DNA of 34,798 nucleotides. Origin: Chrysochromulina tobinii. Lineage: Eukaryota. The stretch lies in NCBI GenBank assembly GCA_001275005.1, contig JWZX01002892.1:1-34798 (forward strand), given 5' to 3'. The notes under the pieces were generated by a model, which searched no databases, was not told where the DNA came from, and saw nothing but the letters and a program-made list of their open reading frames with translations. The position numbers were made by a program, and so were the translations under genes. Of the stretch, positions 3,587 to 34,798 are shown in pieces (position 1 is the first letter of the stretch; every line of letters begins with the position of its first letter).

Positions 3587-5018
3587 ATGAAGAAAGGCGA
3601 TTCTCTCGTTCAGCGCGCGGCGCAAGCCCTTCGCGAGCGGGCACTACGGCCCGACGGAATCGTGCAGCGCCTATCGGATCGGATTGCGTTTCCGCAGCTG
3701 TACAAGCGCTACAGCGAAAACTTTCTCACACATGGCGAACAGTTTTTGAAGGGCGACGATGAGCTGCCACTGTTTGCACCCGGCGTGTGGCATGCGCCAC
3801 TCAAGTGGCGGCCGATACCAGGGCCGACGACCGTCAGCCTTTCTCGCGCCACGCTCACAACGACTGATACGGGCACGGCGATGCTGCGTGGCTTCTACGG
3901 TGGCTCCCGAGGAGATGTAGCCTTGCTTGCCGGTGTGAGCGGGGCAACGGAGAAGGCACCAGTTGGCGCCGGCGCGTGCGGTGTGGGCTCCACGGGCCAC
4001 TGGACGATTGACCTAGCACAGCATCATTGGCTCGAACTCAAGCTGCGCACCGGCACCCGGCGGTTCGAGATGGTGGTCCAGGCGGATGGCCAATGGGAGG
4101 GCAGCACGCGGCTCTGGCGTGCGATCATTCCGGCAGCTGAGTTGCCGAGCCCAGCAGCTGCCGCCAAGAGCAGTGCCGGCGGTGGCGTGGGCCGTGGCGC
4201 ATACGGCATCCTTGGCGTGGCCGCCGACGCGAGCGACGCCGAGATCCGCGACTCGTACCACACGCTAGTGAAGAAGCTTCATCCGGACGTTGCGGGCGGT
4301 AATGAGGAGCAATTCAAGCGCGTAAGTCGCGCGTACGGCCTCTGATGACCTCTGATGACCTCTGATGACCTCTGAGAAGCTCTGAGGACCTCTGATGGCC
4401 GATATGGCTATGTCTCTTGCGAGCAGGTGAGTCGCGCGTATGGGCTGCTTTCGGACGTGCAGAGGCGGAAGCGGTACGACGAGCTCGGCGCCTCTGAGGA
4501 CGACGCGGACGACGACGAGGCGCTCGACGATCTCGGACCTTGGAGATCGATCAAGGTGCCGTTCACAGCCTTCCGAGACCGCGGTTTCTATCAGAGGGCC
4601 GAGCACATCAGCGTCGTGTACTTGCTGCTAGCGGGCGAGTCGACCGGACCGTTCGCTCTCGAGATCGGCGAGGTCAAGGCAGGCCGGTGCGAGAAGGCCC
4701 ACCTGGACGGCGCCGGCCAGTGGGGCCACGTCTCTTGCGAGCAGGTGAGGACCTCTGATGGCCTCCTGGATTACCTCCTGGATCACTGCCTGGATGACCT
4801 CTGATGACCTCTGATGACCTCTGATGACCTCTGATGACCGATTGGGCCACGTCTCTTGCGAGCAGGGCCACTGCGAGTGCGGCTACTATAACGGGTTGCG
4901 CACGGAGGCTTTCGATGGGCCGCTGAAGCTGCAGTCCAACGGGCGCATTCGAGATGGCGCGCTCGAGTGGGGCTTTGCGGAGCACCACCTCAAAGAGGGC
5001 GAGTTTCACGACGGTTGA
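3587..5018 (+). CDS. CIA30-like domain protein with an internal DnaJ (J) domain; exons 3587-4321, 4427-4744, 4866-5018
   Basis: The J domain YGILGV..EIRDSYHTLVKKLHPD..QFKR|VSRAYGLLSD..RRKRYD is restored across GT-AG intron 4322-4426; second intron 4745-4865. Flanks resemble the two halves of CIA30 (IDLAQHHWLELKLR..; WRSIKVPFTAF..GPFALEI). Confidence 0.85.
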
Positions 5019-5453
5019 TCCGGCATAAATACGGTACATGGCGATGTAGTAATTCAGGTGCTGTACGAGGGTTGCCGCCACTCTCCGTCGTCGGAGTAAC
5101 CTGTCTTGTGGTTTTGAGATTGCGATAGCTATGACGCCAGCACCAGTCCGGTCCTCGTCAGATCTCAGAACTCGTCAGACGTCTCACGTCAGGAAGCGCC
5201 CTCTCAGCCCAGGACCCAGGTGACCGTGGGCAGCGGAGCCTGGGAGAGCCGTACTTTGAGACGGAGTGTGGTGAGCGCGCGCGGAGTGTGGTGTCCGCGA
5301 ACTTCGGGTGGAAAAACCAGCATTTCGAAGTCTTTGGAACCTTGGCGCAGCTTCTTCCACACCGACCCTGCCTGTGAGTTTGGGGCGAGCTGAAGGCCGA
5401 AGCGTCGAATGCGCCCCGCATATGAGGACACCTCGTTCTTGAGCGCCCCTGGC

Positions 5454-5973
5454 ATGCGACGAGGTTTGATGACGCTGCTGCTAGCGCTCAGCATCCACGT
5501 TGCTTCCCCGTTTCGGTGCGGATATGGAGCCGGGGGCTTCTCGATCACCGCTCGATCGCCACGGCCGATCGTCATGGCCGACAAATTACTGAGCGAGGCA
5601 CTACTCATCAAGATTGATGAAATACGTAAAACGATGGAAGCTGCGCAAGCACAGCTCACGCAAGCGCAGCAACAGTACGACGCGCTGTTGACTGAACTGG
5701 TCAACAGTCAACTGGTGGTACCTACGGACGTTGAAGCTCCAGTGGCCCCGGAGGAATCGGCAAAACAATTGCAATTACCCAGCCCACCACCGCGATCAGA
5801 ATTCAAAATCGAAATGCCGCAACTCGAACTACCCAGCCCACCGCCACCGTCGGCGCTGCAGCTGTCCGTGCCACCGACAACGAACATCACCGACTCTCAG
5901 GCCCCAGTGACGGCAGCACAACCCAGTGCAGAAACTGAGGAGCACCGTGCGGCGGCATGGCAAGCGTACTATC

Positions 5974-6012
<39 letters not shown>

Positions 6013-9494: not shown

Positions 9495-12195
9495 ATGTTT
9501 GCTGCCCTCCTTTTTCCGACGCTTCTCGTCGCGCTGCTGGTGCTCCCAAGCCCCGTGGCATATAGAGGGCTCCACTTTCTGGGCTGCAGGATCCACCACG
9601 ATTGCCAGCAGACCTACTTGGTGCGCGTCGATGGCGAAGGCACGCCGCGCGAGCTGCGCCACGTCGGCAACGGCAAGTGGCTCTTGGACCGGGATCCTGC
9701 GCCAGTGGCGATCGAGCTGGGTCAGCCGGGCGATGTTTTCGAGCACGCTTCCATGCAGGGAGTCGAGGCAGCCGACAACGACCGTGACGATGCCGCCGCG
9801 CGCGCGGTGCGCGTTCGACGAGCGGCACCGCACTGGCCAGAGAGCTATGTGCGCTCGCTGGCATCGTGCGGCATTAGCGGGCAGGGCATGATCGCCTTCG
9901 ACGCCGACTTTTTCTTGTCGCAGCTCACGTCGACAGCGATGGACCATCCGCTCCTCTTCCCGCACGCCGCGGCCAAGCTCGAGCTCAACGGCCTGCGGCG
10001 ATGTGAGGAGCTGATGGCGGCAGCGGCCGTGACCCTCCGATGCGGCCGTGCCGACGTTTCGTCAAACGCCTTCGCGGAGGTGGTGCAGCGTGCCCAGCGG
10101 GCTCAGCGCTCGGTTGCGGCGATGGCCGCGATGGCACGCGACGGCGTCGGCGTGGCCGCACAAGCAAGCGACGGCGTCGACCCGACTTTGCCCTTGTGGG
10201 ACGGTGGTGGGCGCCTGATCGGCGAGTATGTCGACTGCCACTGATGGCCACTGATGGCCGCTGATGATGACCGCTGATGATGACCACTCTTGATGACCGC
10301 CGATGATGGCTGCTCATGATTCCCACTATTGAGCCGCATGATTCCCACTAACGAGCGCTGACGACTACGAGCGCGCCCCTCATCAGGCACCTGCCCAAGC
10401 TCCTGGATTGCGTCTTGATTGCATCTGATTGCACCGGATTGCACCCTCATCAGGTACCCCGACGGCGAGCTCGCACAGGTGGGCACACGGACGTGCACGA
10501 CATGAGTGCGACTCTTGCGACTCTGATGGACACTGATGACACCACTGATGACGACACTGATGGCGACAGGTGGGCACGGACGTGTTCGACGGCTGCGCGC
10601 TCGCAATTGGCCAAGGGCTGCTACGCACGAGCTTCGACCCGTCGGAGCCACTTGGGATCAGTTTCGGACCGTTGGCACGGCTCGAGGGGCGAGGGTGCGA
10701 GGTGCTCGAGGTCGAGCCGGGCGGCGCTGCCGAGCGGCTGGGCGTGCGCGAGTCGATGGTGATTGCGCTGATTGCGCGCACCACTGCTTGTGCCACTGAC
10801 GGCCTCTTTAATGGCGTCGCTGATGGTGTCCGATTGCCTCCCTCATCACCGACGGCCTTTTTAATGGCGTCACTGATGGTGTCCGATTGCCACCCTCATC
10901 ACTCATCGGATGGCCTCCCTCATCGCTCATCGGATTGCCTCCCTCATCAGGTGCTCCTCATCCTGATGACCTCGGATTGCCCCCCTCATCAGGTGCTCCT
11001 GCGCATGGAGCGTCCCGATCTGCTCGGTCTGAGCGATCTCCTGTTCGAGGACGTGATGGCCCGGATCGACGAGCGGCGGTCGGGCCAGCTCGGAGCGCCG
11101 TCCCGGGCACTCGACGAGCGGCGGTCGGGCCAGCTCGGAGCGCCGTCCCGGGCACTCGACGAGCGGCGGTCGGGCCAGCTCGGAGCGCCGTCCCGGGCAC
11201 CCCCTTCTGACAGCGGAGAGCTCGTGCTCGGAGCGCCGTCCCGGGCACCCCCTTCTGACAGTGGAGAGCTCGTGCTCGGAGCGCCGTCCCGGGCACCCCC
11301 CTCTGACAGCGGAGAGCTCGTGCTCGTGTTTGAGACAGCGGCGCCAGTGAGCCATCTGTATGCCGTCGAGCTTCCCGCCGTGCCCGCGCTCGCCGCCTTC
11401 GCTGCGAGCGAGGGACGGGCGACCGAATGGGTCGCGGCCGATGCCGATGCGAGCGGCGCGGTGCATCGGGCGCTGTCTCGGGCGCGTGAGGTTTCGTCCG
11501 CGCTGACCGGACTTGCCAATTATGGAAGTGGTGCGGTGCTGTGGAAGGAAGAGGAGACCAAAGCTTTCATTGGAGAGGCGAGCTCGATGACGTGCGCGCA
11601 CGTGGACATCGCGCCGCAGCTCGAGATAGCTCATGGGCTCGCTGGGCTGAAAGTGGTTGGAGTGGGCTCACACGGAGAGACGTTACGGCTGCTAAGCGAG
11701 CACGCGGGCGCATGCATGGAGGAGGAGGAGGAGGAGGAGGAGGAGGAGGGGCTGGCGACATGCGTCCCAACTGACAGACCTCTCAAGACGCATGAGGCGG
11801 CCTTGCTAGGTGACCCGGCCGTGACACTGTGCTGCCTTCATCCGGGTGATGCGCTCGTCTTCTCATCCGCCGTACGCTGACGAACCATGATTACCACTGA
11901 CTGATGGCCACTGATGACCCATGATTGCCTCTGAGTGCGACCGAGCGCCGCTGATCGCCCCCGTCATCAGGCGCTCCACTTTGCCACCAACGGCGCCGAG
12001 GGCATGCAGGCCGCCCTCTATCACGGCCTCGTCTCTAGCGCCTCTCTGCCCCGCTTGGAGGAGGCAGCCGTGCGCAGGCAGGCGGGCGGCGGCCCGTATG
12101 CGGGCGAGGATGGAGGCGCATTTGGAGGCGGGGTGCTCAGTGCGGTCGACGTGCTCCTCGAGGCCCAGCTTGCCCAGCGGGCTCTCGGCCTGTAA
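9495..12195 (+). CDS. Signal-peptide/anchor protein with PDZ-like and JmjC (2OG-Fe(II) oxygenase) domains; exons 9495-10225, 10454-10478, 10570-10758, 10993-11871, 11971-12195
   Basis: Four GT-AG introns join the frames. PDZ-like PLGISF..EVLEVEPGGAAERLGVRESM|VLLRM. JmjC metal triad TCAHVD..LAGLKVV..LHPGDALVFSSA|ALHFATN. Hydrophobic N-terminus. Confidence 0.75.
11066..11325 (+). repeat. Coding tandem repeats: 3 x 45 bp then 3 x 48 bp sharing CTCGGAGCGCCGTCCCGGGCAC
   Basis: DERRSGQLGAPSRAL x3 followed by PPSDSGELVLGAPSRA x3. Confidence 0.9.
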
Positions 12196-17798: not shown

Positions 17799-19867
17799 TC
17801 AGTCTTCCTCCGCACGAGCGGCGGCCTGGCCTGCGGCAACGAAGGCGAGTGCGCTGAGCGTGTACAGCACGCCCACCGTTGGGGCTAGCAGCTGCGGCAG
17901 CTCGTAACCTCCCGATTGCACGGCGAGCCCGATAGCGTACGGCGCAAAGTTGCCAACGAGCGTCAGGCACGAGAAGACGCCGGTGGTGAGGCCCTGCGTG
18001 CCAGCAGGTGCGGCGGCCTGGAGTGCCGTGATGGTGGGGCCGAACCAGCACTCGGCGAGCAGATACCTGATGAGGGAGGCAATCAAAGGGCATCAGGGGC
18101 ACGCAGAGGCCATCAGAGGTGTTATCATAGGTGTTATCAGAGGTGTTATCAGAGGTGTTATCAGAGGTTTCATCAGTGGCAATCCGATCTCGCCAGAGGC
18201 TTCCGATCCACGCACTCTATGAAGAGGCTCCCAAGAGAAAGCTCGAGAGTCGGCGCGTCGAGTGCGCCGAGCCAAAACGGGATGGCCAGGAGAGAGCCTG
18301 CCGCAGGCACCCAGTAGGAGGCGCGGCGGTCGAGCACCTGTAGGACAGGGCGCCGTAGTGAGCACTTGCAAGCAGCGGGCACCCAGTACGAGGCGCGGCG
18401 GTCGCGCACCGAGAGCTTGTCAGCGAGAAACCCCCCTCCAGTCGCCGAGATCGAGCCAGCGACGCCGTTGACCGAGGCCTTGATGAGGGCGAACTCGGTG
18501 CCAATCTCGGCGGGGAAGCGCGCGCGGTAAAAGGGTACCACCCACACGCCGATGCTGCAGCCCGCCGAGTGACAAAGCACCCGATGAGAGGGGCCATCAG
18601 ACGCAATCAGACGCAATCAAATGATGGGGACGTTGACGAACCTGAAGCCCGCCAAGAATCGAAGGGCGCTCGCGAGCAGCAGTAGAGCGACCACGGGCTC
18701 TGCCAGGAGCCGCTTGAGGTCGACGACCACGCTCTTGCTAGCTGCAGGGCGGCTGAGCTCCGCCGTAGCTGGCTTAATGAGCTCGTCCATCTCGCCCTCG
18801 CCGCCGCTCTCGGCCGACCGAGCGCCGTCCTGAGCGCCCTCCGCCCAAGAGAAGGATGCCTCGCGCCCAGTGACCTCGGTGACGACGCTGGCACTGTTAC
18901 CGTTGCTAGCTGCCTTCAATGAGTTCAATGAGTCCAAGGGCTCTGGCTCTGACGAACCTGACGAACTTGACGAGTCCAACGGCTCTGGCTGGGACGATAC
19001 AGTCGCGAGAGGGAGGGTGCGCATGGGCGCTGCGCCGGGCGCCTTGTCGAGCGTCGGCGCCATCGGCGGCAGCGTCAGCTGCACGGCGGCCGCGCTGGCG
19101 AGACCCAGCACACCAACGATCACGCACAACTGGCGCCAGCCTAAGGAAGCATCGAGAAGCACGGACAGGGCCGCTAGCCCGCCACCAAAATATAGGCCGG
19201 AGGCATAGAGCCCGTTGACGGACGCGAGGCGCTCCGGCGGATAGAGCCGGCGCAGGATCGCGTACGCCGTCGGATTGGCAAACGCCTGCCCGACGCCCGA
19301 CACCATACGCGCCGCGAGGACCTCATTGAAGCTGCCCGCTGCGCCCGTCAAGACTGTCGCACCTGTCCACAGCACTGACGTGCTCGTCAGCAAGTTGCGC
19401 GTGTCGGTGCGGTCCACGAGGCCACCCGCCACGAGCGAGGTGAGCGAGAAGAGCGCGGCAAAGCCAATCGACGCCAGTATGCCGTACTGCGCCTCATTGA
19501 AGCCGAGATCGACATTCATGAACTGGAAGGCAGCGTCGGCCGAGGGAGTTGCCTTGAAGTCCACGGTGTAAAAGATGAGCTGGCGCGCCCATTGATTCGT
19601 AGTGAAGAGCAGCAGCAATATTAGCACCGCCGCACCGCCGGGCCCGGCCGCCTCTGGCGGCTTTTCGTCCCCGTCGCGGTCTGGACCCTGCGGCAGCTTT
19701 GCGCCCTGGCCTGTGGACGTGTCGATCGCCTGCATTTCGAGAGTCTGGCGCCGCCGCGTCATTGGCGAGCTCATCATGGGAACCGTGCTCGTGCGGAAAG
19801 CAGCTGCGGGCGCGAACGATGTCAGGCCAGCAGCGCCCACGACCGCGAGCAACGCAAAACAAGCCAT
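17799..19867 (-). CDS. MFS transporter (spinster-like), probably plastid-targeted; exons 19867-18642, 18554-18410, 18337-18216, 18066-17799
   Basis: MFS motif A GGLVDRTDTRNLL and GGFLADKL; multiple TM helices. Introns 18641-18555, 18409-18338 and 18215-18067 restore FLAGFSIGVW and LFIEYLLAECWFGP. N-terminal signal plus transit-like peptide. Confidence 0.88.
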
Positions 19868-20075
19868 GAACGTGAACACTGACTGGCTTCTTCATTATGA
19901 ATACACACAACACGTAAGCAGCACAGCCGTGAAAACAATACTATACAATACAGGCCAGGCCCCACATGAGACACATGCAGATGGCTTCTTCACGTTCATG
20001 GCAAGTAAATTTCAACAACCGAAACCCCGAGACGACAGATGCAGCAGGCGCACACAAACGTCTACTGTACGTCTG

Positions 20076-20241
20076 TACCCGGTACCGGTTCATAAACACC
20101 GGGGGGAGCCGGACAAACTCACGAAGCACAAAAACCGGTTCAAACCCCCCTCGGGTGAGCCGGACACGTGACACACGATAGACACACGAACCATAGAAAC
20201 AAACCGGTAAAAAGACACCGTGGGAGCCGGTACACCGGGTA
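20076..20241. mobile_element. Candidate MITE (~162 bp, imperfect TIRs, TA flanks)
   Basis: TA|CCCGGTACCGG ... CCGGTACACCGGG|TA in a divergent intergenic region; non-coding and CCGG-rich interior. Confidence 0.4.
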
Positions 20242-20305
20242 TGCGAGCTGCACGACGATCAAATGAAACGATCATCACAAACTTTGCGTTTCACGTTTGC
20301 GCACG

Positions 20306-21523: not shown

Positions 21524-22329
21524 GGATCCGATCCGTATCATCGCAATGGCGAGAACACGCGTCCTCGTCCAGCAGCGGACCGCGCGGCGTGGAGCGGTAC
21601 AGTACGCGCTGCCCTCGATACTCATACACGATACAGCCTTTTTCTCGCACTTAATCCATGCACCTATCTCGCTCAACGTCGGGTCCGATCAAAACTAACA
21701 AAACCGAACGGTGTCCGCGCGAGGAACACGTGTTCCCGGTGTTGCCCGATTCTGTGTCAGGCGGGTCGCAATGTAGTCGCATATTAGACTAGATTGATGT
21801 ACGTTTGTCGATACATGTTACTGTGGTACGCGTATGGAATCGCGCGACAGCGGACCGACGGCGCGCGGACGGGGACGGCACATCACGCACAGTCGCACAC
21901 CAGGGCTCGCCGCCACGAGCGCCACACCGCGCGCCCGGCGACGAGGTGACGCGTCCTGCCACGTCGTACCGCGCAGCGCGCATGGGCATGCAGGACGGAC
22001 TGTGCTGCACGCGAACCAGCAACCACCGGGCACTGGCACCACTGCACCAATTCGTGCGCCCTTGATTCCTTCTCTGATTGCGCATTATTTTTGCGCCAGA
22101 ACCACCGCGGGTCCGCACGTCGACTGGCATGGGGCATGCTGGTCGGGCCGGCCGAGATGGCGACGCGCTCACCACTCGATGCACACAGCTGCCGCGCACA
22201 ACACGCAAGAACTCTCTCACTTCACTGGTGGATTGGCCTGCAAACTTCTCCAGACCACCACTGCATGCATCGACCGACCCAAGTGCTAATCCAGGCAAAG
22301 CAAGATCCAAGAAACGCGTGGCTCAGCTT

Positions 22330-23306
22330 TTACCTCTCCATCTCTGCGATGCGCCGCGACTGCTCGAATCCCATGCCAGCAGGGCGCTGCGGCCCACCGC
22401 GAGAGCCGCCGAGCTCGGGCTTTGCCTTGAGCAGCGCTTTGATCCCCATCGACCGTAGCTCCAGGATCTCGTTGGCTTCGTCAGCCTCGGCCTTCATGCG
22501 TGCGTACTCGGGGTCGACTGGGTACTTGCCGAAGTCGCCGGGCGTTTGCCCACCATAAAAGCGGCCGGCATCGTCGCGACCGTCCCACCCGCTCACAGCC
22601 GCCGGCGCGCTCTTCGGGTTGATGCCACCGCTGTTCTTCCAGTGGGAAGTGCCGTCTGCAGCAATGGGGTTCCGACAACACGCACAAAGTCAGGGGCTGG
22701 GGACTCTCAGACGAGCTCAGCGGGTTATCTTAGCGGGCAAGGCATCCGAGTTCGAATCTCGCCGTCCCCACAGTTCTTGTCAGCGTCGGCGAGGCCGCGG
22801 ATGTGTCCGGTGAAACCGACGACGGGCATCACGTACGGGTGCCCCGAGGTGTCAAGCGCTGACGTGGGCCGTTGGCGGGGTGGCGGTGCCGCGTTCGACC
22901 CAAGCACGTGGTGATGAGTCCCCTGTGGCCTGAAGCCCGTATACCCTGCGATTCCGGCGTACACGTTGGCGCAGGCAGGCTTATGGCGAGATTCAAAGTC
23001 TGTGTCGTTGTCCATAGCAGCGAGGGCGCCGGCAGCTACGAGGCCTTGCTTGGGAATGTGGACTGTGGTGCTCTCCTGGATGATTCCGCCGAAACGGCTC
23101 ACCACCGTCCTCAAGTTGGCCGTCTCAGTGTTTAGGACGCGTGCCGGAGGCATCTCAACCGGTGCTGCGAGCGTGGGCACGGCCACGGGGGGTCTGGCGA
23201 AGCCCATCTCGACGCGGCGGTGACTATCGAGCAAAGGCTTGGATGGAACATTGATTCGAACTCCTCGCTCGAGGGCCACCGTCCCAGGGTCGCGTTGCCT
23301 ATGCAT
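22330..23306 (-). CDS. FAM166/CIMIP2-like protein with GY/FTG motifs; exons 23306-22772, 22655-22330
   Basis: GIAGYTGFRP and MPVVGFTGHIRG motifs. GT-AG intron 22771-22656 joins KN-Y-GTSHW in frame with ORF 22330-22596. Confidence 0.65.
22699..22770 (+). other. Degenerate tRNA-like / tRNA-SINE-like sequence antisense within an intron
   Basis: 72 nt. GGGGAC..GTCCCC-A acceptor-like stem, T-arm CGAG-TTCGAAT-CTCG and A-box-like AGCTCAGCGGGTTA. No clean D or anticodon arm. Confidence 0.5.
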
Positions 23307-23650
23307 GATGGCACCTCCCCCTGAAGAGTCCCAATGGCCATTGCGGAGCGAACTTAGTTTTCGTAGCAGCACATCAACGAAACCGAAACGGTCGCTGCAC
23401 AGTTTGCATACACGCGCGATTACAGCAGAATTGAACTACACAGCCATGTCGCGTGGGTTTCAAAACACACACATGCCGCCGTCGCCCAAACCATCCTCAA
23501 CGCCGCCAGCGCGCGCGCATGCTCCGTGTCTCATATGGGGTCGTGTAAGGTGTGTGTATTTTGGGCGGGCAGTAACAGTGCCGTAACACCGGCTGTCGCG
23601 TCTGTCGTGTTAACGTTCACACAGGATTCAAAATTTGCGGTGCACTAGCC

Positions 23651-24956
23651 ATGCCTGTGCATGCGCGCTGCCTCGTGCTGAGCAACGGCATGGTCGGCGC
23701 CGAGAAGCAGGCTCTCGCTTTAGCTGAGGCGATCGGGCTGCCGTTTGAGGTGCGTAGAGTGAAACAGGTCATACCGGCACTCTCTCGGCTGCCGTCCTCC
23801 GTGCTAGCCTCCGCTACACATCTCCTGGGAAGCGTCGGCGTGAGTGGGATCGGTCCAATAGATGCTCCGTATCCGGCGCTGGCCATATCATGCGGCCGCG
23901 GGAGCATACCTGCGAGCATCGCGCTGCGCGACGCGGGCCGAGGAAGCACACTCACCGTGCACATTCAGCGGCCCGAGTGCAGTGCGAGCTGGTTCGACCT
24001 GGTGATTGTGCCGCGCCACGACTACCCGACGCTGGCACCGCCGAATGCAGTGCTGACCCGAGGATCGCTCCACAGCGTGACGCCCGAGCTGCTCGCTGCA
24101 GCGCGCAGGGAGTGGGAGCCCGTACTGAGGCCCTTCCCGTCACCGCGCCTCACGCTCCTCCTCGGAGGCACAGGTGAGATTGCCACTGATTGCCCCCAAT
24201 GATTGTGCTCTGATTGTGCTCTGATGGCTCCTGATCCTCCTTGGACGCACAGTGTCGCGTAGCTGGTGGCAGCGGCCGCTCGCACCCGAGCTCACCGAAG
24301 AGAGCGCGCGGGCCTTCGTGCACTCCGCACTCGGCGCCGTCCGCCGCTTGGCCGGCAGCCTGCTTGTAACCACCTCACGTCGCACCCCGGCGGCAGCACA
24401 CGCGGCGGTCGCGCTGGAGCTTAAGGCCGCCGCAGCTGCGGGCGTCCCCTGCCAGTTGTGGACTCCCGATGCGACGCCTAATCCGTTCCACGGACTGCTC
24501 GCATGCACGGACCAAGTGGCCGTTACCGCCGACTCGATCAACATGGTCACGGAGGCATGTGCCGCGGGTGAGCCGCCATCTCGCGTGCTCGACCACCCTG
24601 ATGGCCACCAAGAGAGCCCCTGATTGCCACTGAGTGCCACTGATTGGCCCTCCACTGAGTGCCCCTGATTGCGTCGCTCATTAGGTAAGCCCATCTACGT
24701 GTTGGACCCGTTAGCGTGCCGCCGCCGGTACGCGGTCTTCCACAGCCGCCTGCTTCAAGAGGGTCGCACGCGCCCGTGGCCGGCCGACGGTGTGCTCGAG
24801 CCTGCGACGCTGTGGAGGCGCAGTAGTGAGCACTCGCATGCCAACGGTGACCTCGAGCGTTCGACGTTGTGGACCGCCACCGACGAGCTGAGCGACACTG
24901 AGCGCGCGGCGGCGCGAGTGGCAGAGTTGCTGCGCGAGCGAGGAGTTTTGGTGTAA
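23651..24956 (+). CDS. ELM1: Mitochondrial fission protein ELM1-like; exons 23651-24173, 24253-24567, 24685-24956
   Basis: G..GAEKQALALAEAIG, AISCGR, VHIQRP..FDLVIVPRHD, LLLGG, VTTSRRTP, NPFHGLLA..VTADSINMVTEACAAGKPIYV. Introns 24174-24252 and 24568-24684. Confidence 0.92.
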
Positions 24957-25374
24957 GCGGGCGTGGAGCGACTCTACCCCTTAGTCGCCGTGCTGCAAGA
25001 GCAAGGAGTGATGGCTTTTGCGGTTGGTGGCACATCCCGAGGGGAGGCTGCGCTGCGTGCCGTGTGCCGGTGGGATGTGCTGATAGGCTGTCGGTATGGT
25101 CCGATCTTTCACGCCCTGCCCGGAGCCCGGGGTGCGCGGTACGGATAGATTAGCGAACGTAGCTCCCAGCACCCAACGCAAACCCAATGAGTTAATCAGA
25201 TCACACAAGGCATCCGCGACGGAGTGTAACTCAACTCACGAAGACATACAGGAGCGGGTTGCTGACTCAATGAACTCAGAAAGAGATCACACTGGAGTCT
25301 GGACACGCCTCGTGTGTCATGAGGAGACACAAAGGCTTCCAAAAGAGCATGATGAGGCGACGAGGACGTCCGCT

Positions 25375-26328
25375 CTAGGAGTCGCAATTAAAAGTGTGGC
25401 CTCGGACTCCGCTGCAAACCCCTATCTTCCAGGGGCTGCGGGAAGCGTTGCCTTCCAACGTCCCTATCCATGGAAGTATCAAATCGCAGCCAAAATTGTG
25501 CTCAACGCATGGTGGCGTGTGCACAGGAACTTTGAAGCCGCACTCCGCAAAAAGCTGTTTGAGCTGTATTGGCGAACAGTCGGCACCCCGCAATAAGTGG
25601 CCATAAAATTCCACTTTGGCCACACCCACCCTGCCCTCTTGCAACCATCTTTTCATGCCACGCACAGTATGGCATTCATGTCCCTCCACGTCAATCTTCA
25701 AAACGTCCGCACGAAATGAGTCCGGCAGTATGTTATCCAGTGCGCGAACCGGCACATTCTTTTGGTACACCGTCGAGCTGTCCCTAGGGTTTTGCGTTGC
25801 GTTGGATTCTCTGAGAAACGCATGGCCACCATTATGTCGTTTGATTGCAAGTTTCATGGTGCTTGACGTGCTACTTGCGGCAAGTGGGTAGACAATAGCC
25901 CGGCCGGTCAACTCTGGATGCTCGCGAACGGCTTCCGAAAGTGTCGATGTCAAGTAGAAAAGGTTGGCAGGCGACGGCTCAAACGCAACTATTGATGCAT
26001 TCGCTAGCAGCATAGGGAGGGTGCATGCCCCAATATTGGCTCCGAGCTCCAAAAAGGATCGACTCGATCCTCGAGGAACCTTATTAAGCAAATGAAGCAG
26101 CGGACCACATTCAAACCAAGATCCAGCCCTCCGAAGCGAATCTGACATCAAATCGCTGCCCAGACCGTAGAGACACATGTGACCATATTTTGTATGTGTC
26201 CAATGGCATCTGTGGCCGGGCGGAGGTGGCAGGGCGGCATCACCCGCACGCCACGCTCTCCACGCCAAGCTGTCGCAAGGCACAGCTGTGGAGCCACAGC
26301 TTTCGTTGATCACAAGTTGCGCCAACAT
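25375..26328 (-). CDS. FkbM-family SAM-dependent methyltransferase
   Basis: FLELGANIGACT, VAFEPSPANL, VRALDNIL and VLKIDVEGHE..V.GM. Intronless; start uncertain. Confidence 0.88.
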   Translation of the reverse strand: MLAQLVINESCGSTAVPCDSLAWRAWRAGDAALPPPPGHRCHWTHTKYGHMCLYGLGSDLMSDSLRRAGSWFECGPLLHLLNKVPRGSSRSFLELGANIGACTLPMLLANASIVAFEPSPANLFYLTSTLSEAVREHPELTGRAIVYPLAASSTSSTMKLAIKRHNGGHAFLRESNATQNPRDSSTVYQKNVPVRALDNILPDSFRADVLKIDVEGHECHTVRGMKRWLQEGRVGVAKVEFYGHLLRGADCSPIQLKQLFAECGFKVPVHTPPCVEHNFGCDLILPWIGTLEGNASRSPWKIGVCSGVRGHTFNCDS

Positions 26329-26469
26329 TACAATTGCAGGGAGAAGTTTGGTGCTGTGTCTATTCAACAAGTTTGGTCCAGACCAGCTCTGAGCGAAGCG
26401 CCCTAGTTTATTTCTGTACCGGTAACCCGGTTTCGGGTATGTCTCAAGGTATGTCTGTGTGATTTGCGT

Positions 26470-26695
26470 GTCAAGTCAAGACTCAAGAGTCAAGTCACTC
26501 ACTCATGTCAACTAGGCTTTACAATTAAACAACAGAGAGCAAAGAATGTGCTCCGGAACACCGGAAGCCAGCTATGGAAAACGGGAGAATGTTGAGAGGG
26601 CGCGGGGATCATATATAATGAGGCGCCACGGGAGTGGACTTGACTTGACTAATTGACTTGACTTGACTTGATCGCCTCTTGACTCGCGGGGCCGC
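26470..26695. promoter_or_regulatory. Divergent promoter region with outward-facing TTGAC clusters and a TATA-like element
   Basis: GTCAA(G) cluster at 26470-26512, ATATATAAT at 26611-26619 and a TTGAC array at 26637-26670. Regulatory role is inferred from position only. Confidence 0.4.
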
Positions 26696-26803
26696 CCTCT
26701 CTCAGCCCGCCCTCTCTCACCCCTCAAAGAACCCAAACGCACGCGACGCGTGACATCTCCACACTCGTCTCCTTCTTCACGAACACACACCGAGGTGCTC
26801 AGG

Positions 26804-28626
26804 ATGCCGCATCCCCCAGCTTCTGCGTCGAAAAACTGGGTAGATAAACTCAGCCCTGACGGCTCAGACGACTGGAGGCTTGGGCCGAGGCAAACTGGCG
26901 GAGGGGGCAAGAGCAAGGCGAAGGAAAAGAGCGCTAAGTTCGCGCCTCGTTCTGCGTCTCAGTTCCAATTGGCGCATCAAAGGCTCGCCGACCATCTTGC
27001 GTCGACGATCGACTTCCAGCCCGCCGGTCTGGTCTCTCCGGAGCGATGCCCGCGTCTGCAGCGATTGATACACACGTGCAAGGATCGGCAGCGCATGGAG
27101 CTTGGTCTACCCTCGGGCGACAAGAGGGACTGGACGGACTTTGAGATCGACCGCGCCACGGTCAGGATGGCCAAGGAGTGCACGGGCGTCTCCCCTTCTC
27201 CGGATGTCAACCTGTGGGAACTTGTGATGGAGTGCACGTGCATCAAGCCAATAAGTGACGAGATTTGCGGGCGAGAAGAGTATGTGGAGGCGCTTGTTGT
27301 TGTGAACGGCCTCAGGACGCTCACTGTCGGGCGCGCACTGCCCAAGAACGGCGACTTTCTGCATACGGGCTTCCTGAGCTTTTACGACGACGGATGCGTC
27401 AAGCATGCGTACGGTGACGACCCGGCTATTGGGTGTCAACAAGTCTCACAGATCAACGACGCGCAGGCGACGATCTACTTTGAGTTTGCGAAGGTGTACC
27501 GCAAGTACCTCGCGGTCGAGGATCAGATTGCGAAGCTGCTCGGCATGCACATGAACTTATACGCGCAGGCCGCCGATCAGCTCGAGTCACTGCGCTACAC
27601 GTTACTTTCGGTGCCCCAAATGCCCTCCCACTGATTGCCACGGATTGCCCTTGATTGCCTCTGATGGCCCTTGATTGCCTCCTTCATCAGGTGCCCAGAA
27701 TGCCCGCCCACTGCCGCGCGATCTTCGAACTGGTCAGCCGGCGGCTGCCGCACTTGTTCCGCGAGTGCGCCTTCTCCAAGTCGCAGAACCTGGAGAATCT
27801 CGCCATCATCGAGCCTCTCTACACGCTCGAGCTCGAGGTGAGATCGACGCTGGATGCATCTGAGTGCATCTGAGTGCTGCTGAGTGCAGCTGAGTGTGAT
27901 GTTTGAGCTCGAGGTGAGATTGTCGCCGCTGGTCGCCACGGATCGCCATTGCTGACCACCAATTACATCCCTCATCAGGCAATTGTCGCCATCAGTCCGG
28001 TGCAGGCCGCTCGAGCGGAGCGTGCCATTGCCGCAGGCAAGGGGCGTGCCGCCGCCGGGCTGTCGCAGTGCATGACCTCAGAACAAGCCTATGCGCTGCT
28101 CGATGCTGAGGACTCTGCACGGGCGTCCGAATCCCGCGCACTGCTGCCTCCACCTGCGATACCTCACGTGAGACGAAGCCGGGGAGATCGGAAGAGATCG
28201 GAGGAGATCAAGCGAGACCAAGCGAGACCGAGCGAGATTACGAGACCAATCGAGCTGCCCATCTCGCCTCCTGCTGCCGCCCCCGCCGACGCGCTGCCCT
28301 CACCACCATCCTCCTCCATAACCGCCGCCGACGCGCTGCCCTCACCTCCATCCTCCTCCATAGCCGCCGCCGACGCGCTGCCCTCACCACCAACCTCCTC
28401 CATAGCCGCCACCGACGCGCTGCCCTCACCTCCATCCTCCTCCATAGCCGCCGCCGAAGCGCTGCCCTCATCTCCATCCTCCTCCATAGCCGCCGCAGAC
28501 GCGCTGCCCTCACCTGCCGCGGCCGCCTCTGCAAGGGAAGAGTTTGGGCGGCTTGCAGAGGCAGTGACGGCGGGGATTGAGGACCTGGCCCTCATCAAGG
28601 GGTCATCATCGAGGGGCCTTCAGTGA
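26804..28626 (+). CDS. Hypothetical protein; exons 26804-27610, 27691-27837, 27979-~28626 (3' structure uncertain)
   Basis: Three ORFs are joined in frame by GT-AG introns 27611-27690 and 27838-27978. No domain recognised. Further introns are possible near 28168 and 28602-28680. Confidence 0.65.
28285..28515 (+). repeat. 42 bp tandem repeat (ADALPSPPSSSIAA) x ~5.5
   Basis: GCCGACGCGCTGCCCTCACCTCCATCCTCCTCCATAGCCGCC units read directly. Confidence 0.92.
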
Positions 28627-29077
28627 TCGCCCCTGATCACCACTGATGGACCTTCAAGCTATCGAGGGGCCCTCATCAAGCCCCCCCCTAGGATTCCTAC
28701 CTTGGAGTGGCCAGAATGCCAAGGCTCCTACTGCATGCCCGCTATGGATAGAAAGCGAAGGGACGTTGGATGCTCTGTCGTGTGGACGTGGAACAGAAGG
28801 AACAACGAAGTGCGGCCAATTGAGTGCGGCGACGCGACGTCCGAGAGCGCGGACACAAGCGGGGACCGGGCCCCCTCACGTCGCCCGTCTCTCGAGTTTT
28901 CAGGTCTGCTATTATCATGGCTTCCTATTATACAAAAATAGTAGACGAGACGCCGCCGACGGCATGTCCATGACCATGTGCCGGTCGGCGAATGAAATTG
29001 GAAAATTCGACTTACATAGATCTAACGTATGAAAACTGCAACGCTGTGGGAACAACGGGTCTTGTTACAAACTGCAT

Positions 29078-32021
29078 TCAACAAGACTCCCAACTAGTCG
29101 AGAGCCACTCATGCCTCGCCGCGTCCTCCGCAGTGAGCCTCCTCTCGTAATCGACCGTCATCAGGCCGCGCACCATGCTCTTCGCCTCCGCGGAGATGTC
29201 ATCCCACCACGGTGAAGGGAAGCTGTACTCGCCGCCTAAGATATGCCGGTGCAGCACCGCCTCGTCGTCGGCACCCCACGGAGGGAAGGCGCACAACATC
29301 GTGAAGAGCGTCACGCCGAGCGCCCACATATCTGCGAGCCGGAGGGCACAATCAATGGTCCTCAAAGGCTAATGAATGCGAGCCGACGGACACAATCAAT
29401 GGTCCTCAAATGATAATCAGTGCGAGGCAACAGAAAGAGCGCGAGGGGAGAGGCTATCAATGGTACTCAGAGGTCATCCGGCGCAATCAGACGCAATCAG
29501 TCGCAATCAGTCATGCGCACCCGGCGTCGTTGACTCGAAGCCTCGGCCACTCAGCTGCTCTGGCGACACATATTTGGGTGTGCCGCACCAGCTCGAACCT
29601 CGCAGCACGTTCGGGCGCACGATCGCCGCGTACCCAAAGTCGATGAGCCGTATCGAACCCGCCTCGTTGACGAAGCAGACGTTCTCAGGCTTGATGTCGT
29701 TGTGAACGATCGAGCGCGCGTGGAGGTACCCGACGACGTCAAGCAGCTCCGCAAGGATCAGAGCAGCCTCATCCTCCGCGATGGCGCCGCCACGCTCGAT
29801 GAGGCTGTAGAGCTCGCCCCCTGCCGCGTACTCGAGGACGAGGCTGATCGTACCTGTGAACGAGCGACGCCACGCTGTGAACGAGCACATGCATGCAGAG
29901 GAGGTCAGGATCACGCTCCTCGTACCCGAGATAGGATCCGAGATCGTCTCATAGAGCTTCGCTATATATGGATGGTGGAGGCTGCGAAGCAAGGCCACCT
30001 CAGCCTCGACGGTGGGCAGTTGCGCATGCATCGTCACCTTCGCCACGTCGATGGTCTTAATGGCCACCTCGTCGGGGTAGCCGTTGGCCTTGGCGCACAG
30101 GTTGTGCGCACGGCGCACAATCGCGTAGCTGCCCACGCCAATCGTCTCAACGAAGCTATACCTGGTGAGGGAGAGGTACTCAAGAACGCAATCAACACGT
30201 AACCATCACGCCATCATCACGCAATCAACACGTTACCCTGCCAGCAAGTTGAGTGGCAGCTGAGGCGCGGCTTTGTGACGAAGCGCGGTGTCGGCCTCCT
30301 CGGGCTTGGCGCTTGCATGCACTCCCTTTTTGGACTCACGCTTTGCCGCGAGCACCGCCTTCTTGGCGGCCAGCCTATCGAGCGGAGCCGCCACCACAGC
30401 GGTGGAGGGCACGTGGGGCGCCGAGACGGGCACGTGAGGCGGTGTTGCCACTGGTGAGCTGCCCGCGCGCGCCTGTGGGGAAGAAGGGTGGCGCACCGTG
30501 GTGAGCGTGTGCATGCAAGGCAGAGGGGCGCATCTCGAGCTGCCCGCGCGCGCCTCCTTCTTGGCCGTCGCCATGGCACCCCGCCGCGCCGCGAGGATCT
30601 CCTTCTTGGAGCTCACCTGATGGAGGAGGCCATCGAGGCTCATCAGTGGTCATCAGTGGTTATCAGTGGTCATCAGATTCATCAGAGTCATCAGGCCTTC
30701 GAGGGTCATCAGTGGTCATCAGAGGTCATCATAGGCCATCGGAGGCCATCGGAGGCCATCGAGGGTCATCAGTGGCACTCAGGGTGGCACACAAGGTGGC
30801 AATCTCGTGCTTGGAGCTCACACTCGAGGTGGCAATCTCGTGCTTGGAGCTCACACTCGAGGTGTCAATCTCGTGCTCGGAGCTCACACTCGAGGTGGCA
30901 ATCTCGTGCTTGGAGCTCACACTCGAGGTCGTGCGCCAGCTCAAGCTACGCGAAGAGGACGAGCATACTTCCTCCATCAACGGCACAGGCAGTGGGCTGC
31001 GATTCATACCCCATCCGTCGTCGGACGTGAGTGCGCTCACGGCGCTCACGGCGCCGCGGCCACCGCCGTCGTCGCTGTCGCCGCCGTCATCGCGCGCGCG
31101 CGCCGGAGCCTCTGCGTGCGCGGAAGTCGCCGACGGTGATGGCCACAGCCGGCGCCGCTCGAGGACAGCGTCCAACCCCGCGGTCGGCTGGGCGCCGGAG
31201 ACGTCGTCGGCCAGCGCGCCGTGGAGGGCGACGGCGCGCCGCGCATGCATCATGAACGTCTCGAGAAGCTCGAGCGCGCCACCGCCGCGCGCCGCCACCG
31301 CCGCGAGTGGCAGCGCCATCAGCCCTGCTTGCAGCGTCGCTGCGGCGTTCGCTTCGAGCCGGAAGAGACAGAGTGCATCCTCGACGATCTCGACGCGCAG
31401 CGCCTGCAGCGCGCCATTCGTGGAGCAACCGAGGCTCGCGCACTCGAGCGCGACGGCCGTGAGCCCTTGCAGTCGCGGCAACTCAGCAGCCAGCTCGCGC
31501 ACGGTGCGGCTCGCCCACGCACGGCCAGCGTGGCCGTCGGCGTCGCGGAGCGTTCCGACGCCACTCCACTGGCAGAGCGCGCGCATGAAACCAGCGCACT
31601 CGCTCACGTACTCGCCCTGTGCGTGCCGGCCCTGCGGCTCGCAGCACACCGCAGCGAGCTCGCGCACCGCTTGGGAGAGCGACGCGACGTGCCCTGCACT
31701 CGCGACGCGGCGGAGCACGAGCAACGCCTTGGCTGCGACCGTCGCCGAGGCCGACGAGCGGCACGCCTGCAGCCGCTTGGTGAGCTCCGCATCCACCTGC
31801 GCCGCCGTCTTCTCCTCGCCCGCGAGCCGCACGATCGTGAGCACGTGCTTCTCCTTTGGTGGCAGCCAGTCGTCGGTCGTCGCCTCGAAGAGCGCCGTCT
31901 TGCACTCGTCTGTTTGTTGCGTTCGGCGGACGGACGATGCCCGCCCCTCTGTCGGCAGACGCACTGATGGCTGTCGCGCTGGCTTGCTGGCGGCACAGCC
32001 GCAGCCACGCAGCCGCAGCAT
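29078..32021 (-). CDS. ANTH/ENTH-like domain fused to a CAMK-group Ser/Thr kinase; exons 32021-30921, 30616-30554, 30472-30237, 30161-29926, 29853-29521, 29331-29078
   Basis: N-terminal ALFEATTDDWLPPKEKHV..LTKRL..VAAKALLVL. Kinase motifs IGVGSYAIV, VAIK, HNDIKPEN, DFG, CGTPKYVSPE, DMWALG and WDDISAEAK. Five introns (four GT-AG, one GC-AG at 30553-30473) keep the frame throughout. Confidence 0.8.
30796..30929 (-). repeat. 33 bp tandem repeat x4 spanning a splice donor
   Basis: Unit ACCTCGAGT|GTGAGCTCCAAGCACGAGATTGCC with donor-like GT at 30920, 30887, 30854 and 30821. Confidence 0.9.
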
Positions 32022-32921
32022 GCCCGTGTCGGGGTCCGACCACCGAGAGCGTGCAAACTAGGGGACAAGATTTGGGTACCAAGTGCCGTTAATCGGCAAA
32101 AGGTAGGGGGAAGTGGCGCAGGTGGCGCAACTATTGAATCAAAAGCGGGTGATTTATGCTGCCGTGACCCAGCGGGCAGCGGCCTTCCCCTAGAGTAACC
32201 CGATTTGGGAACCTCTTATGAGTTCTTTTTAGCCACAGGACACGGTTTTACCCAAGGGGGTCAGGGAGGCGGAGGGATGTTAATCTTCTGGATTTGCACA
32301 AAATCGTGGAACTCATAGTTACCCTGATTTCAAAGTAACTGAGATACTGAGTGATTTACAGTACATAGTCCCAACGGGGGGGGTAGACGTACTAAGACGA
32401 CTGAGGAGGGATTATTGTCTGGATATTGCGCACAAGATTCCACGGCACGCGATCCGGGCCTCAACCCCGCGTCGGACATCGCCCTCTGTTTTCACGTCGC
32501 GTCAAACCGTGCAGATTTGTACCCTGAGAAGTGAGATATTAATCTCAAATCTGACGGTGTTCACTTCACAGTGCGCACACTCTCGTGACCGCCCGTCACT
32601 GTCAGTTGTTCACTCACATCAGTGCATGCATCAGTGAGTCAAACTCACTGACACACGCTCCGCACTCGCACTCACACACACACATGCTGTGCAACACTCG
32701 CACACACACACACGCTGTGTGCACCTCCTTACGCACCCACTACGCTGCCTCCCCGTCTCAAAGCGAATCGGCTCCGCTGCCCTCGGTCAAGACAAGTAAT
32801 GAGTACTCGCTCGTGTTCCATCGATGCACTTATTCGATGCGAAACACAACTCCCCCGCAAGTCCAGATGGATACAGTCACATCATGCTCGATCGGCTCAC
32901 CAAAGCCCGCTTTGGCTTTTC

Positions 32922-34798
32922 TCAGAGCGTGCCGCACGCATGCTGCTGGCAGTGCGGGATGTCATGGATGGCATACCCGCCCCGATCGCGCTTGCAGTCT
33001 CTGGCAGGCTGCTCCATATCCTTGCAGCAGCCCTTGTAGGTGATGCCGCCGACGCCCGCGGAGAAGTCGTCCATGCCACACGTCTCATGCCACCAATAAT
33101 TGGGGACCCAGATGACCTCACCCGGCTGCTGCACACACTCGAGGGTACTCGTCCGCCGACTGGCCTGATGTGGCCTGCACTGGTCGGCCGGATCGCGCAC
33201 ATGGCGTGCCATCATCTCGGGCGGTTCGGTCTCGCTGTGATGATATCGGAGCAGCAGGAAGCAGCGCGAGGCAATCAGCATGCAATGAAGGAGGCAATCA
33301 GCAAGGGGGAAGCAGCGCGATGAGTGGCATCATCAGAGGCGATGAGTGGCGACCGGATGCAATCAGTGTCCAATCACCTGTCCGGATGCAATCAGTGTCC
33401 AATCGCCAATCACCTGTCCGGATGCAGAAGCCAGCGCTTCCGTCCGACGACCGCCGCGAACCACGACGCCGGGTGATTCTCAGGCGGCACGCCCACGCCG
33501 AGCCCCGAACCAATCCCCATTTGGAAGGTGCTCATGGGCTGGAAGTAGGGGGGCACGTGATACGAGCCCTTGGCAATCTGGGGCGAGGGAAGCAATGAGG
33601 AGGGCAATTAGGACGGCAATTAGGGAAGCAATGAGGAGGGCAATTAGGACGGCAATTAGGGAAGCAATGAGGAGGGCAATTAGGACGGCAATTAGGGAAG
33701 CAATGAGGAGGGCCAACATGACACAAACATACGATGCCACGATCTGGAAGTCATGAGGCAATTATGACGCAATCATATGATGCCACGATCTGGGCAATCA
33801 TCACGAGGCAATCTCGATGCAATCTCGATGCAATCTGAGGCCATCACGAGGCCATCAAGAGGTCATCAAGAGGCAATCACGAGGCAATCACCTGCTCGAA
33901 TAGGAAGGGAGAGTACGGCCGCCATGGGTCCGAATAGCATGCATGAGCAGGGTAGACGGCGTGCCCCATGTGGTACTTTCCCTCCCAAGCAAGCAACTCG
34001 CCCAGGCTCTTATTGTACGTGTCGTGCAGTTGGAAAGGGCTGTGGAAATGCTCTTGCAGGATCACGTCGCGGGTCCATCCTTGCAGATTGGTCCAATTAT
34101 TGGTGAGGCCGTCGATGATGAAAGGCCACTCAGCCGTCTCGAGCAGCTCGCGTGTCACCTGCCACAGTGCGACGCGCTGCAGTGAGCACTTGCATGCAAG
34201 GCCACTCAGCCTCCTTGAGCAGCTCGCGCGTCGCCTGCCATCAGCGGCAATTACTATAGAACGAGGCCATCAAAGGCCATCAGAGGCAATCAGTGGCCTC
34301 TAGTCGCAGCCACCTCGGTCTTCCGAGCGTCCATTCGCCACAGGTCGCATCCCTTCGTCTTGTACGCCCCCGGCAGCTTGAAGCGCCCGGTCTTGGGAGA
34401 CCCTTCCATCCCAGCTCCCACGTGCGAGGGATCAATGTACCTGTGGGTATCGGGCTCGTCACGGGCTCGTCAGTGTTTCGTCAGGGTTCGTCACGAGCTC
34501 GTCAGTGTTTCGTCAGGGTTCGCCCTCGTGCGAGGGATGAAGGCACCGTTGGTGGGCAGGAGGGTTCGGCAGTGTTTCGTCAGGGTTCGTCACGAGTTCG
34601 TCAGTGTTTCGTCAGGGTTCGCCCTTCGAATGTACCGTTCGTGCTCGGGAATGTGGGACCACGCGTGCATCTCGGCAGGGACGTTGATGCCGGCTGCGAT
34701 GGCCTCGCTCAGGGTCATCATCCCTGGAGGGGGGCTGGATCTCGTGCTCGTGCCGCCCTGGGCGCCCATGCCCCCCATGCCCCCCCTTCCCCCCATGC
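32922..34798 (-). CDS. JmjC/cupin-8 protein (JMJD8-like), 5' end may lie outside the window; exons ..34636, 34440-34314, 34158-33892, 33577-33414, 33234-32922
   Basis: GCDLWRMDA..WPFIIDGLTNNW..WT, FQMGIGSGLGVGVP, VVGRKRWLLHP and ECVQQPGEVIWVPNYWWHET. Four GT-AG introns keep the frame. Confidence 0.82.
33587..33712. repeat. 36 bp intronic tandem repeat x ~3.5
   Basis: GGGAAGCAATGAGGAGGGCAATTAGGACGGCAATTA units inside intron 33891-33578. Confidence 0.9.

Follow-up and report, generated by a model that had tools for sequence, protein, structure and literature searches.

Among the introner classes of Polarella and Symbiodinium are some in which a target-site duplication is co-opted for one of the two splice sites (10.1101/2020.10.14.339549), and a marine Chrysochromulina sp. 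MAG carries introners with 4 bp duplications (PMC9860276). The published duplications are class-specific and short, with 3-8 nt in Polarella and 3-9 bp in general (10.1101/2020.10.14.339549; PMC9860276). The introner family fam24 of Emiliania huxleyi is described in supplement file 8 of PMC12130899 by five copies with 10-bp terminal direct repeats. The same 2025 screen assigned 0 introner families to C. tobinii (PMC12130899 supplement file 7); its filters required similarity up to both boundaries and dropped simple-repeat families (PMC12130899). More generally, introner screens detect near-identical full-length copies only. Neointrons of Daphnia pulex arising from staggered double-strand breaks include 33 direct repeats among 90 neointrons, of 4-12 bp, with AT-rich inserts of mostly unknown source and with empty alleles in existence (PMC4202315). 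Micromonas introner elements and same-gene intron pairs of Oikopleura were attributed to reverse splicing (PMC3879977). The Replitron-1 elements of Chlamydomonas measure 0.9-3.6 kb and have a hairpin as well as terminal direct repeats (PMC10288648). How new introns originate is a standing question, and repair-based gain rests on short repeats and on inserts of unknown source. A literature search, mostly outside subscription journals, returned no description in C. tobinii of the pattern reported below.

Half of the modelled introns carry a copy of their flanking exon

The window is the whole analysed stretch of 34,798 nucleotides, taken from a contig of the freshwater alga Chrysochromulina tobinii. 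We modelled 24 introns by hand on this one contig, 10-11 of them with an RNA joint, and their removal leaves long open frames in all nine intron-bearing genes. Twelve of the 24 have at one end a copy of their own flanking exon (an echo), which is 7-38 nt long, decaying, and joined to sequence common to other introns (Table 1). They are spread over seven genes: four named from Pfam (a DnaJ-domain gene, MFS, ELM1 and an ANTH/kinase gene), two unnamed genes at 9.5-12.2 and 26.8-28.6 kb, and a gene at 32.9-34.8 kb that has no match in Pfam. All 12 echo pairs quoted in the first-pass annotation, from these seven genes, are present in the sequence, but two introns had to be relocated: the second DnaJ intron lies at 4745-4865 and the first MFS intron at 18555-18641.

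An anchored echo score was compared with 20,000 derangements of the exon partners. Scores of at least 6 are found in 12 of the 24 introns (null mean 0.44, maximum 4) and scores of at least 10 in nine (null mean 0.05, maximum 1), so the claimed frequency of echoes holds up against shuffled exon pairs. Taken singly, three echoes are weak: those at 24568 and 29925 score 6.5 each, and the one at 34635 has 7 nt. The long echo is one-sided in 12/12 introns, at the 5' end in nine and at the 3' end in three, and one splice site (GT/GC, or AG) is recruited from the duplicated exon. This bears out the proposal that a one-sided duplication of variable length supplies one splice site.

The RNA evidence consists of contigs from three RNA runs, covering positions 26690-34798. 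Ten of their 11 joints fall at modelled introns and one is the collapse of a tandem repeat. Within this reach the predicted junctions are spliced as modelled, with joints at four of the 12 echo introns: 29854-29925, 30473-30553 (with a GC donor), 30617-30920 and 34441-34635. A fifth, 27611-27690, has an RNA hint, an 8-nt overhang in one contig only. The introns at 30473 and 29854 are removed in L004 as well, a contig that looks like a transcript. The NCBI model treats the intron at 18338-18409 as coding. For annotation, in-frame and stop-free echo introns are recorded as duplicated peptide (KOO26098.1).

Table 1. Introns of the window with terminal, internal or nested echoes, or with widely shared ends (positions in the window)
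Intron	Positions	Strand	Structure	Support
DnaJ-domain gene, intron 1	4322..4426	+	5' echo of next exon, 17/20 nt; family-A 10-nt repeats	NCBI model KOO26102.1
DnaJ-domain gene, intron 2	4745..4865	+	family-A body; 3' echo (22/22 nt) from the end of the previous exon, gives AG	NCBI model KOO26102.1
Unnamed 9.5-12.2 kb gene	10479..10569	+	5' echo, 23 nt with 2-nt insertion; family-A body	reading frame alone
Family-A intron	10759..10992	+	secondary copy across 3' splice site; 8-nt echo within the intron, at 10951; in frame, without stops	frame and filler content only
MFS, family A	18067..18215	-	without long echo; 3' end common to ~30 other contigs of DNA run X1	
MFS, 72 nt	18338..18409	-	5' echo 38 nt (34/38); family-B body; in frame, without stops	homologues only; no RNA joint seen
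MFS	18555..18641	-	family-A body, own 3' end decayed; then 3' echo 13/15, fading to ~23 nt, provides AG	homologues
ELM1	24174..24252	+	family-A body; 3' echo 16/18	homologues
ELM1	24568..24684	+	5' echo ~27 nt, gapped, decayed, weak; family-A body	homologues
Unnamed 26.8-28.6 kb gene	27611..27690	+	5' echo 20/23; 6-nt overlap of echo into family-A body	RNA overhang
Family-A intron	27838..27978	+	internal copy of 5' splice-site region; internal 9-nt echo	RNA joint
Kinase, 72 nt	29854..29925	-	5' echo, decayed, exact over 7 nt and traceable over ~20 nt; family-B-like body	RNA joint; L004
Intron, 81 nt	30473..30553	-	perfect 17-nt 5' echo (19 nt counting shared AG), supplies GC donor; family-B body	RNA joint; L004
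Intron	30617..30920	-	5' echo 18/20, amplified to 33-nt tandem units across donor; then family-A body	RNA joint
Family-A intron	33235..33413	-	internal 13-nt copy of upstream exon end and donor	RNA joint
Compound intron	34159..34313	-	family-A intron, then nested unit (34159-34234) of ~40-nt exon echo and family-B body	RNA joint
Intron	34441..34635	-	7-nt terminal echo; family-C body (11-nt repeats); internal ~32-nt copy across exon-exon junction	RNA joint

Shared bodies and decaying echoes

The non-echo parts of the introns are sense-oriented and common to other introns, with a family A of 10-nt repeats and a body of ~40 nt; family B is non-repetitive and recurs in unrelated genes. Sense likeness to other introns reaches a score of at least 14 in 18 of the 24, against a best antisense score of 10.5, and the filler motif is found 69 times in sense versus once in antisense. 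Best pair scores between introns range from 9.5 to 50.5. The copies are not near-identical and one end is the locus-specific echo; similarity to both intron boundaries is absent in the 24 introns. Duplication lengths are not fixed per family (2-27 nt in family A, about 7-41 nt in family B), and family A occurs with both 5' and 3' echoes. The intron at 4322 repeats, over ~74 nt at its 3' end and at 88%, the 3' part of its neighbour at 4745-4865, that intron's echo included, and the copy runs up to the AG. There is a hint of later homogenisation here: the 4745 echo is perfect, yet what appears to be its copy in 4322 has decayed. At 13 echo/body junctions picked by eye, the overlap sums to 39 nt against ~24 expected (P ~0.004), being strong at four junctions and at chance level at nine. 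The first-pass annotation had a low-complexity filler supply the other splice site. The filler is common to several loci and not merely low-complexity. Outside the echo, these introns are copies of intron families that recur in sense orientation, which brings them closer to introners than had been implied.

The echoes mismatch their exons at 33 of 276 sites, distributed 11/9/13 over the codon positions. This even distribution indicates neutral decay, and the echoes are fossils; their use as alternative coding copies is ruled out, as there is no third-position excess. Four of them preserve an older exon state. The echo at 27611 keeps a Ser that is found in 5/10 cluster members among the matches listed, an exon allele still segregating in relatives; that at 34234 keeps a Glu found in sister-lineage exons; that at 29925 keeps a Met codon also seen in the sister lineage and in L005; and that at 18409 keeps an Arg present in 9/10 distant homologues among those listed. 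Another echo, upstream in L001, is perfect in the relatives P0260/269/271. The 29925 echo could also be read as a mere filler motif, from loose ends in RNA contigs, an idea that we set aside because the sister-lineage exon fits the echo better. On the question raised in the first-pass annotation, whether echo identity falls off with intron age, the echoes do decay with age.

Relatives and the origin of the echo introns

Clusters of relatives were analysed from the matches listed, at most 15 per cluster, and these lists favour intron-bearing look-alikes; the echoes read in them are those other than 27611, 34635 and 10479. Read-through peptides place the introns at 4322, 4745, 18555, 24174, 24568, 29854, 30162, 29332 and 33578 in the more diverged lineage as well. 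At the peptide level, 12/12 members of one cluster have at 18409 a second unit, made of an exon-type echo and a different B body, and 13/15 of the window's cluster, among members listed, have a single unit. Judging from these peptides, the second unit is specific to the sister lineage and absent from the window strain. A different GC donor within the 18409 unit, also considered, would replace a conserved Gly. A metagenome scan with the kinase exon gave 5 useful loci out of 80.

In distant haptophytes, introns are lacking at the three MFS sites examined. The MFS echo sites are crossed unbroken, at the peptide level, by P0026, P0029 and P0287, and the one at 18555 also by P0024; these homologues are genomic because they run into introns elsewhere. 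At another site P0287 terminates in a peptide of family-A type, and P0029 seems to have an intron at the 18067 position too. Among 186 distant homologues of MFS, 78 run across the site at 18555 and 33 across that at 18338. Most of them are not distinguishable from transcripts and so were not counted as empty, as is the case for L005 and P0045. The first-pass annotation had asked whether the positions are novel or polymorphic in orthologues and sister strains, or ancient and shared across haptophytes. Sharing with distant haptophytes is not seen at the three MFS sites, and no polymorphic empty exon site was seen among close relatives.

The echo introns likely record a mode of making new introns that was missed by the published screens of this genome, and we think it probable that they are insertions accompanied by duplication, and that these events created the introns. 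The more specific account, in which intron pieces are copied into staggered exon breaks by DNA repair, has in our view an even chance of being right. We infer gain, break geometry and DNA-repair enzymology along the following lines. Offset nicks 2-40 nt apart would give rise to the duplication; the broken end would pair with another intron at a few matching bases and prime there; the copied stretch would bring branch-point-like motifs and one splice site; and the duplicated exon bases would provide the other (GT/GC, or AG). Selection would leave only sense-oriented products with clean splicing. Where such an event struck the start of an existing exon, it would produce nested units, and local tandem copying over splice sites would produce internal echoes. 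Existing introns are hit as well, as the nested units and the tandem copies over splice sites show, so an echo is not in every case the mark of a new intron. As no polymorphic empty exon site was seen among close relatives, the suggestion of a major route of intron gain is drawn from the anatomy and the distant outgroups, on one contig. We more tentatively consider a dedicated, so far undescribed intron-copying system in Chrysochromulina. It would write fragments of introns, as RNA or DNA, into exons, and the long duplications of variable length made in doing so would provide whichever splice site is missing, in either polarity. Such a system would have made most introns of the genus unseen by introner screens.

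An RNA template would likewise predict copies that stop exactly at the AG of the donor intron and lie strictly in sense orientation. It is rather unlikely, although the leading alternative, that a non-autonomous mobile element spreads the intron pieces with variable target duplications, either by target-primed reverse transcription of debranched intron RNA (with a non-LTR or Penelope-type enzyme) or by an HUH (Replitron-like) transposase. Variable duplications and 5' truncation are typical of non-LTR insertion. Here, 3' ends constant at AG, variable 5' ends and microhomology, in sense orientation only, would match such an element, as would the family-B body in unrelated genes and the family-A 3' end on other contigs. 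This pattern fits the nine 5'-echo introns but not the three 3'-echo introns, and family A is also found with an intact 5' end and a 3' echo. There is no tail, and the best end-to-end inverted score is 3-6 in 24/24 introns, which leaves no terminal inverted repeat. None of the six bodies folded has a stable or significant hairpin, Rfam gave 0 matches, and the intron comparison revealed no common terminal repeat. The nearest template of 4322 is only 400 bp off, and bodies are not near-identical. Filler and family-B patterns had 0 matches in viral contigs; their single bacterial match in GTDB is taken as chance. Replitron-1 duplications are variable, and C. tobinii is reported to have one Replitron locus (PMC10288648).

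We regard as improbable a later addition of the echoes to introns that already existed, whether by template switching between splice sites or by partial conversion with cDNA, without any intron gained. Secondary copying into existing introns does occur (the nested units at 34234, in L001, and at 18409 in the sister lineage), the tandem arrays at 30920 vary from 2 to 4 copies among strains, the window and L003 differ in the 5' part of intron 30162, and close relatives are without an empty site. However, the intron at 18338 is echo and family body end to end, as nearly are 30473 and 29854, so that no older intron remains, and distant genomic homologues are intronless where MFS has its echoes. 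An origin by plain tandem duplication of part of an exon, with the middle overwritten later by expanding branch-point repeats, is already disfavoured and very improbable: short tandem duplications are common here and the mechanism is established (PMC3443670), but it predicts echoes at both ends, where a long echo on both is found in 0/12 introns, and family B is non-repetitive and common to several genes.

DNA-run contigs span the introns at 18338, 18555, 24174, 24568, 27611, 29854 and 30473, L001/L002 are 99.99% identical to the window over 19522-34798, and L003, a 98%-identical relative, retains 10/10 introns within reach; independent assemblies thus carry the same duplications. An origin by assembly artefact or chance has a negligible probability, even with introns rich in repeats and the best DNA runs possibly being the window's own source: it is refuted by the RNA joints, by L003, by echo peptides in many independent contigs, by the permutation test, and by copies that are diverged rather than identical.

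Comparison with described systems

In half of the introns, one can read the duplicated target as well as the sequence of the donor. The host is an alga in culture, for which RNA data exist and wild relatives are many; each echo in it is a dated fossil of an exon, and a genome-wide version of this analysis would test directly how much intron gain current screens miss.

Replitron-1 is alike in being copy-and-paste and orientation-specific with target duplications of variable length, but its termini are absent here, and intron formation is not reported for it in the sections of PMC10288648 used here. The window introns share with Micromonas introner elements and Oikopleura same-gene pairs the sense-only repeat introns, the nested or merged copies and the same-gene copies; reverse splicing would presumably leave no exon duplication, unlike what we observe. 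Compared by its description alone, fam24 of E. huxleyi, also from a haptophyte, has the 5' site co-opted and the 3' site carried. Daphnia neointrons have the same one-sided direct repeat of the adjacent exon, with later breaks adding internal repeats and length, whereas repeats in the window reach 38-41 nt, the inserts are traceable to other introns, and no empty alleles are seen yet. The introners with target-site duplications likewise form repeated intron families in unrelated genes, with one site carried, the other taken from the duplicated exon, and the mRNA unchanged. The window differs from them in duplications of 2-40 nt within one family, in either polarity, and in bodies that are partial and built of repeats.

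Frequency and splicing of the echo introns

Introns that carry a copy (echo) of a flanking exon at one end are real, frequent and spliced. Every intron/exon pair quoted in the first-pass annotation is present in the window, where nine genes read open once 24 introns modelled by hand are removed. We scored intron starts against the downstream exon and intron ends against the upstream exon, with 20,000 shuffles of exon partners as the control. Scores of at least 6 were obtained for 12 of the 24 introns (shuffle mean 0.44) and of at least 10 for 9 (shuffle mean 0.05), above the shuffled-exon control in both cases. The echo is at the 5' end in nine of these 12 introns and at the 3' end in three. 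The downstream exon starts with GT or GC at 16 of the 24 modelled introns, and this or an upstream AG is found at 22, which fits minimal duplications as well as a general proto-splice bias.

RNA contigs cross 10 intron joints within 26690-34798, plus one at 22656, including those of four terminal-echo introns (one with a GC donor); a fifth echo intron is supported by an 8-nt overhang. The proposed splicing is thus confirmed by RNA for the first four, and the other echo introns follow NCBI models, homologues or reading frame. Retained introns are seen in the RNA contig X15 (34441) and in the transcript-like L004 (30162). The MFS gene corresponds to the NCBI protein KOO26098.1. The same structures occur in DNA contigs, in two further assemblies and in the 98%-identical relative (L003), which argues against the assembly artefacts envisaged at first.

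Coordinates of individual features (window positions, unless the independent assembly L001 is named)
Feature	Position	Observation	Source or scope
In-frame, stop-free intron	18338-18409	Annotated as coding; corresponding 24 residues absent from homologues	KOO26098.1
In-frame, stop-free intron	29854-29925		
In-frame, stop-free intron	30473-30553		
In-frame, stop-free intron	10759-10992		
Older exon state in echo	27611	Ser	5/10 among cluster members listed
Older exon state in echo	34234	Glu	Read-through proteins of relatives
Older exon state in echo	29925	Met codon	Relatives
Older exon state in echo	18409	Arg	9/10 among homologues listed
33-nt units	30788-30920 (-)	Each with donor, frame kept; spliced at first donor or at second (+11 residues, or assembly collapse)	RNA contig X13 (first), L004 (second)
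Five 33-nt units	L001 4710-4860	Span a 3' splice site, from the end of family A into the first bases of the exon	Upstream part of last gene
Intron 5' third	30162-30236 (-)	Window and L003 unlike; window version copied locally from further downstream in the same intron	
Filler-like sequence	28590-28690	Short duplications, partly antisense, around stop of 26.8-28.6 kb gene; read through unspliced	One RNA contig
SET-like gene 3' end and decayed ~80-nt copy	2820-2890 and 3445-3525	Copy ~620 nt downstream, separated by an AT-richer stretch	Seen by eye
(GACTT)n runs near gene starts	495-535, 26470-26500, 26630-26670	Very high look-alike depth	DNA run
Kinase gene first exon	31138-31868	Several diverged look-alike contigs	DNA run X1
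~500-nt direct repeat	L001 4-500 and 2290-2780	Either side of gene upstream of window	

Intron bodies and the decay of echoes

The remaining parts of the introns (bodies) are copied too: 18 of 24 resemble other introns in sense, none in antisense. Family A is a 10-nt repeat with recurring ends, built on a motif that we liken to a branch point; within introns this motif occurs 69 times in sense and once in antisense. In DNA run X1, 29-30 contigs diverge from the alignment directly past one family-A 3' end. Family B is a non-repetitive body of ~40 nt, found at 18338, 29854, 30473, 34159 and in L001, and 34441 carries a third type, an 11-nt repeat. Over its 3' 74 nt, intron 4322 duplicates intron 4745 as far as the AG of the latter, the echo of 4745 included. 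We found no TIRs in the introns, no stable hairpin in the six bodies folded and no Rfam family. At 13 echo/body junctions chosen by eye, four overlap by 5-6 nt and nine are at chance level, and the summed overlap is 39 against ~24 expected after a rough bias correction.

The echoes are duplications undergoing decay, differing from the exon at 33 of 276 aligned sites (11, 9 and 13 by codon position). Four of them keep an older exon state, as judged from read-through proteins of relatives (table). Further upstream in the last gene, three relatives have a perfect version of an L001 echo that has mutated in this strain, and the 18555 echo is nearer to the exon sequence in proteins P0076 and P0077.

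Age, gain and repeated events

None of the close relatives examined lacks a tested intron, so these introns predate the split of the lineages; the members listed come from clusters that favour look-alikes. The distant MFS homologues P0026, P0029 and P0287 cross the MFS echo sites without a break and, since each runs into introns at other places, we count them as genomic. At another site, P0287 ends with the type of peptide expected from the start of a family-A intron (one of 203 distant proteins scanned), and P0029 apparently also has an intron at the echo-less 18067 position. Two homologues read into introns: P0024 shows a 10-residue periodic peptide (perhaps a different 10-nt-type filler) and P0029 what may be a short echo at the site equivalent to 18067. 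Given the unbroken genomic homologues, parsimony suggests intron gain in one gene, MFS.

At 34234, and again in L001, an older 3' splice site is followed immediately by a unit made of an echo plus a family-B body. At the level of peptides, not DNA, a sister lineage has a second unit at 18409 in 12/12 members of one cluster, with an exon-like echo and a body unlike the first, and the window's own cluster has a single unit in 13 of the 15 members listed. Tandem copies span splice sites at 10951, 27838, 30920, 33413 and 34441, the 30920 array having 2-4 units among strains.

Mechanism and known systems

We favour, with about even confidence, a model in which a copied intron piece would insert at a staggered break and selection would keep spliceable, sense-oriented products. 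Both polarities, the local donors, the overlaps and the nested units are all explained by it. The exact ends at AG and the dispersed family B are explained equally well by an RNA- or transposase-driven element, which seems to us rather unlikely. That echoes were added later to old introns is certain for the internal copies and doubtful as their origin elsewhere. Plain tandem duplication is very improbable, since it predicts echoes on both sides and none of the 12 echo introns has a long echo at both ends.

Echo introns escape published screens, and the literature searched for this pattern held no account of it. PMC9860276 gives introner TSDs as 3-9 bp long, and those of a marine Chrysochromulina MAG as 4 bp; in 10.1101/2020.10.14.339549 they are 3-8 nt, fixed by class. 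Supplement rows of PMC12130899 give C. tobinii 0 families; the filters described in that paper would probably drop one-ended, repeat-built families. Parts of PMC4202315 report 90 Daphnia neointrons, 33 with exon repeats of 4-12 bp; excerpts of PMC10288648, PMC3443670, PMC3879977, PMC3296678 and PMC8469720 are related, and those of PMC4580454 mention introns once. Echo introns behave like a cross between a TSD-type introner and Daphnia-type break repair, but depart from such an introner in having neither a fixed TSD nor full-length identity.
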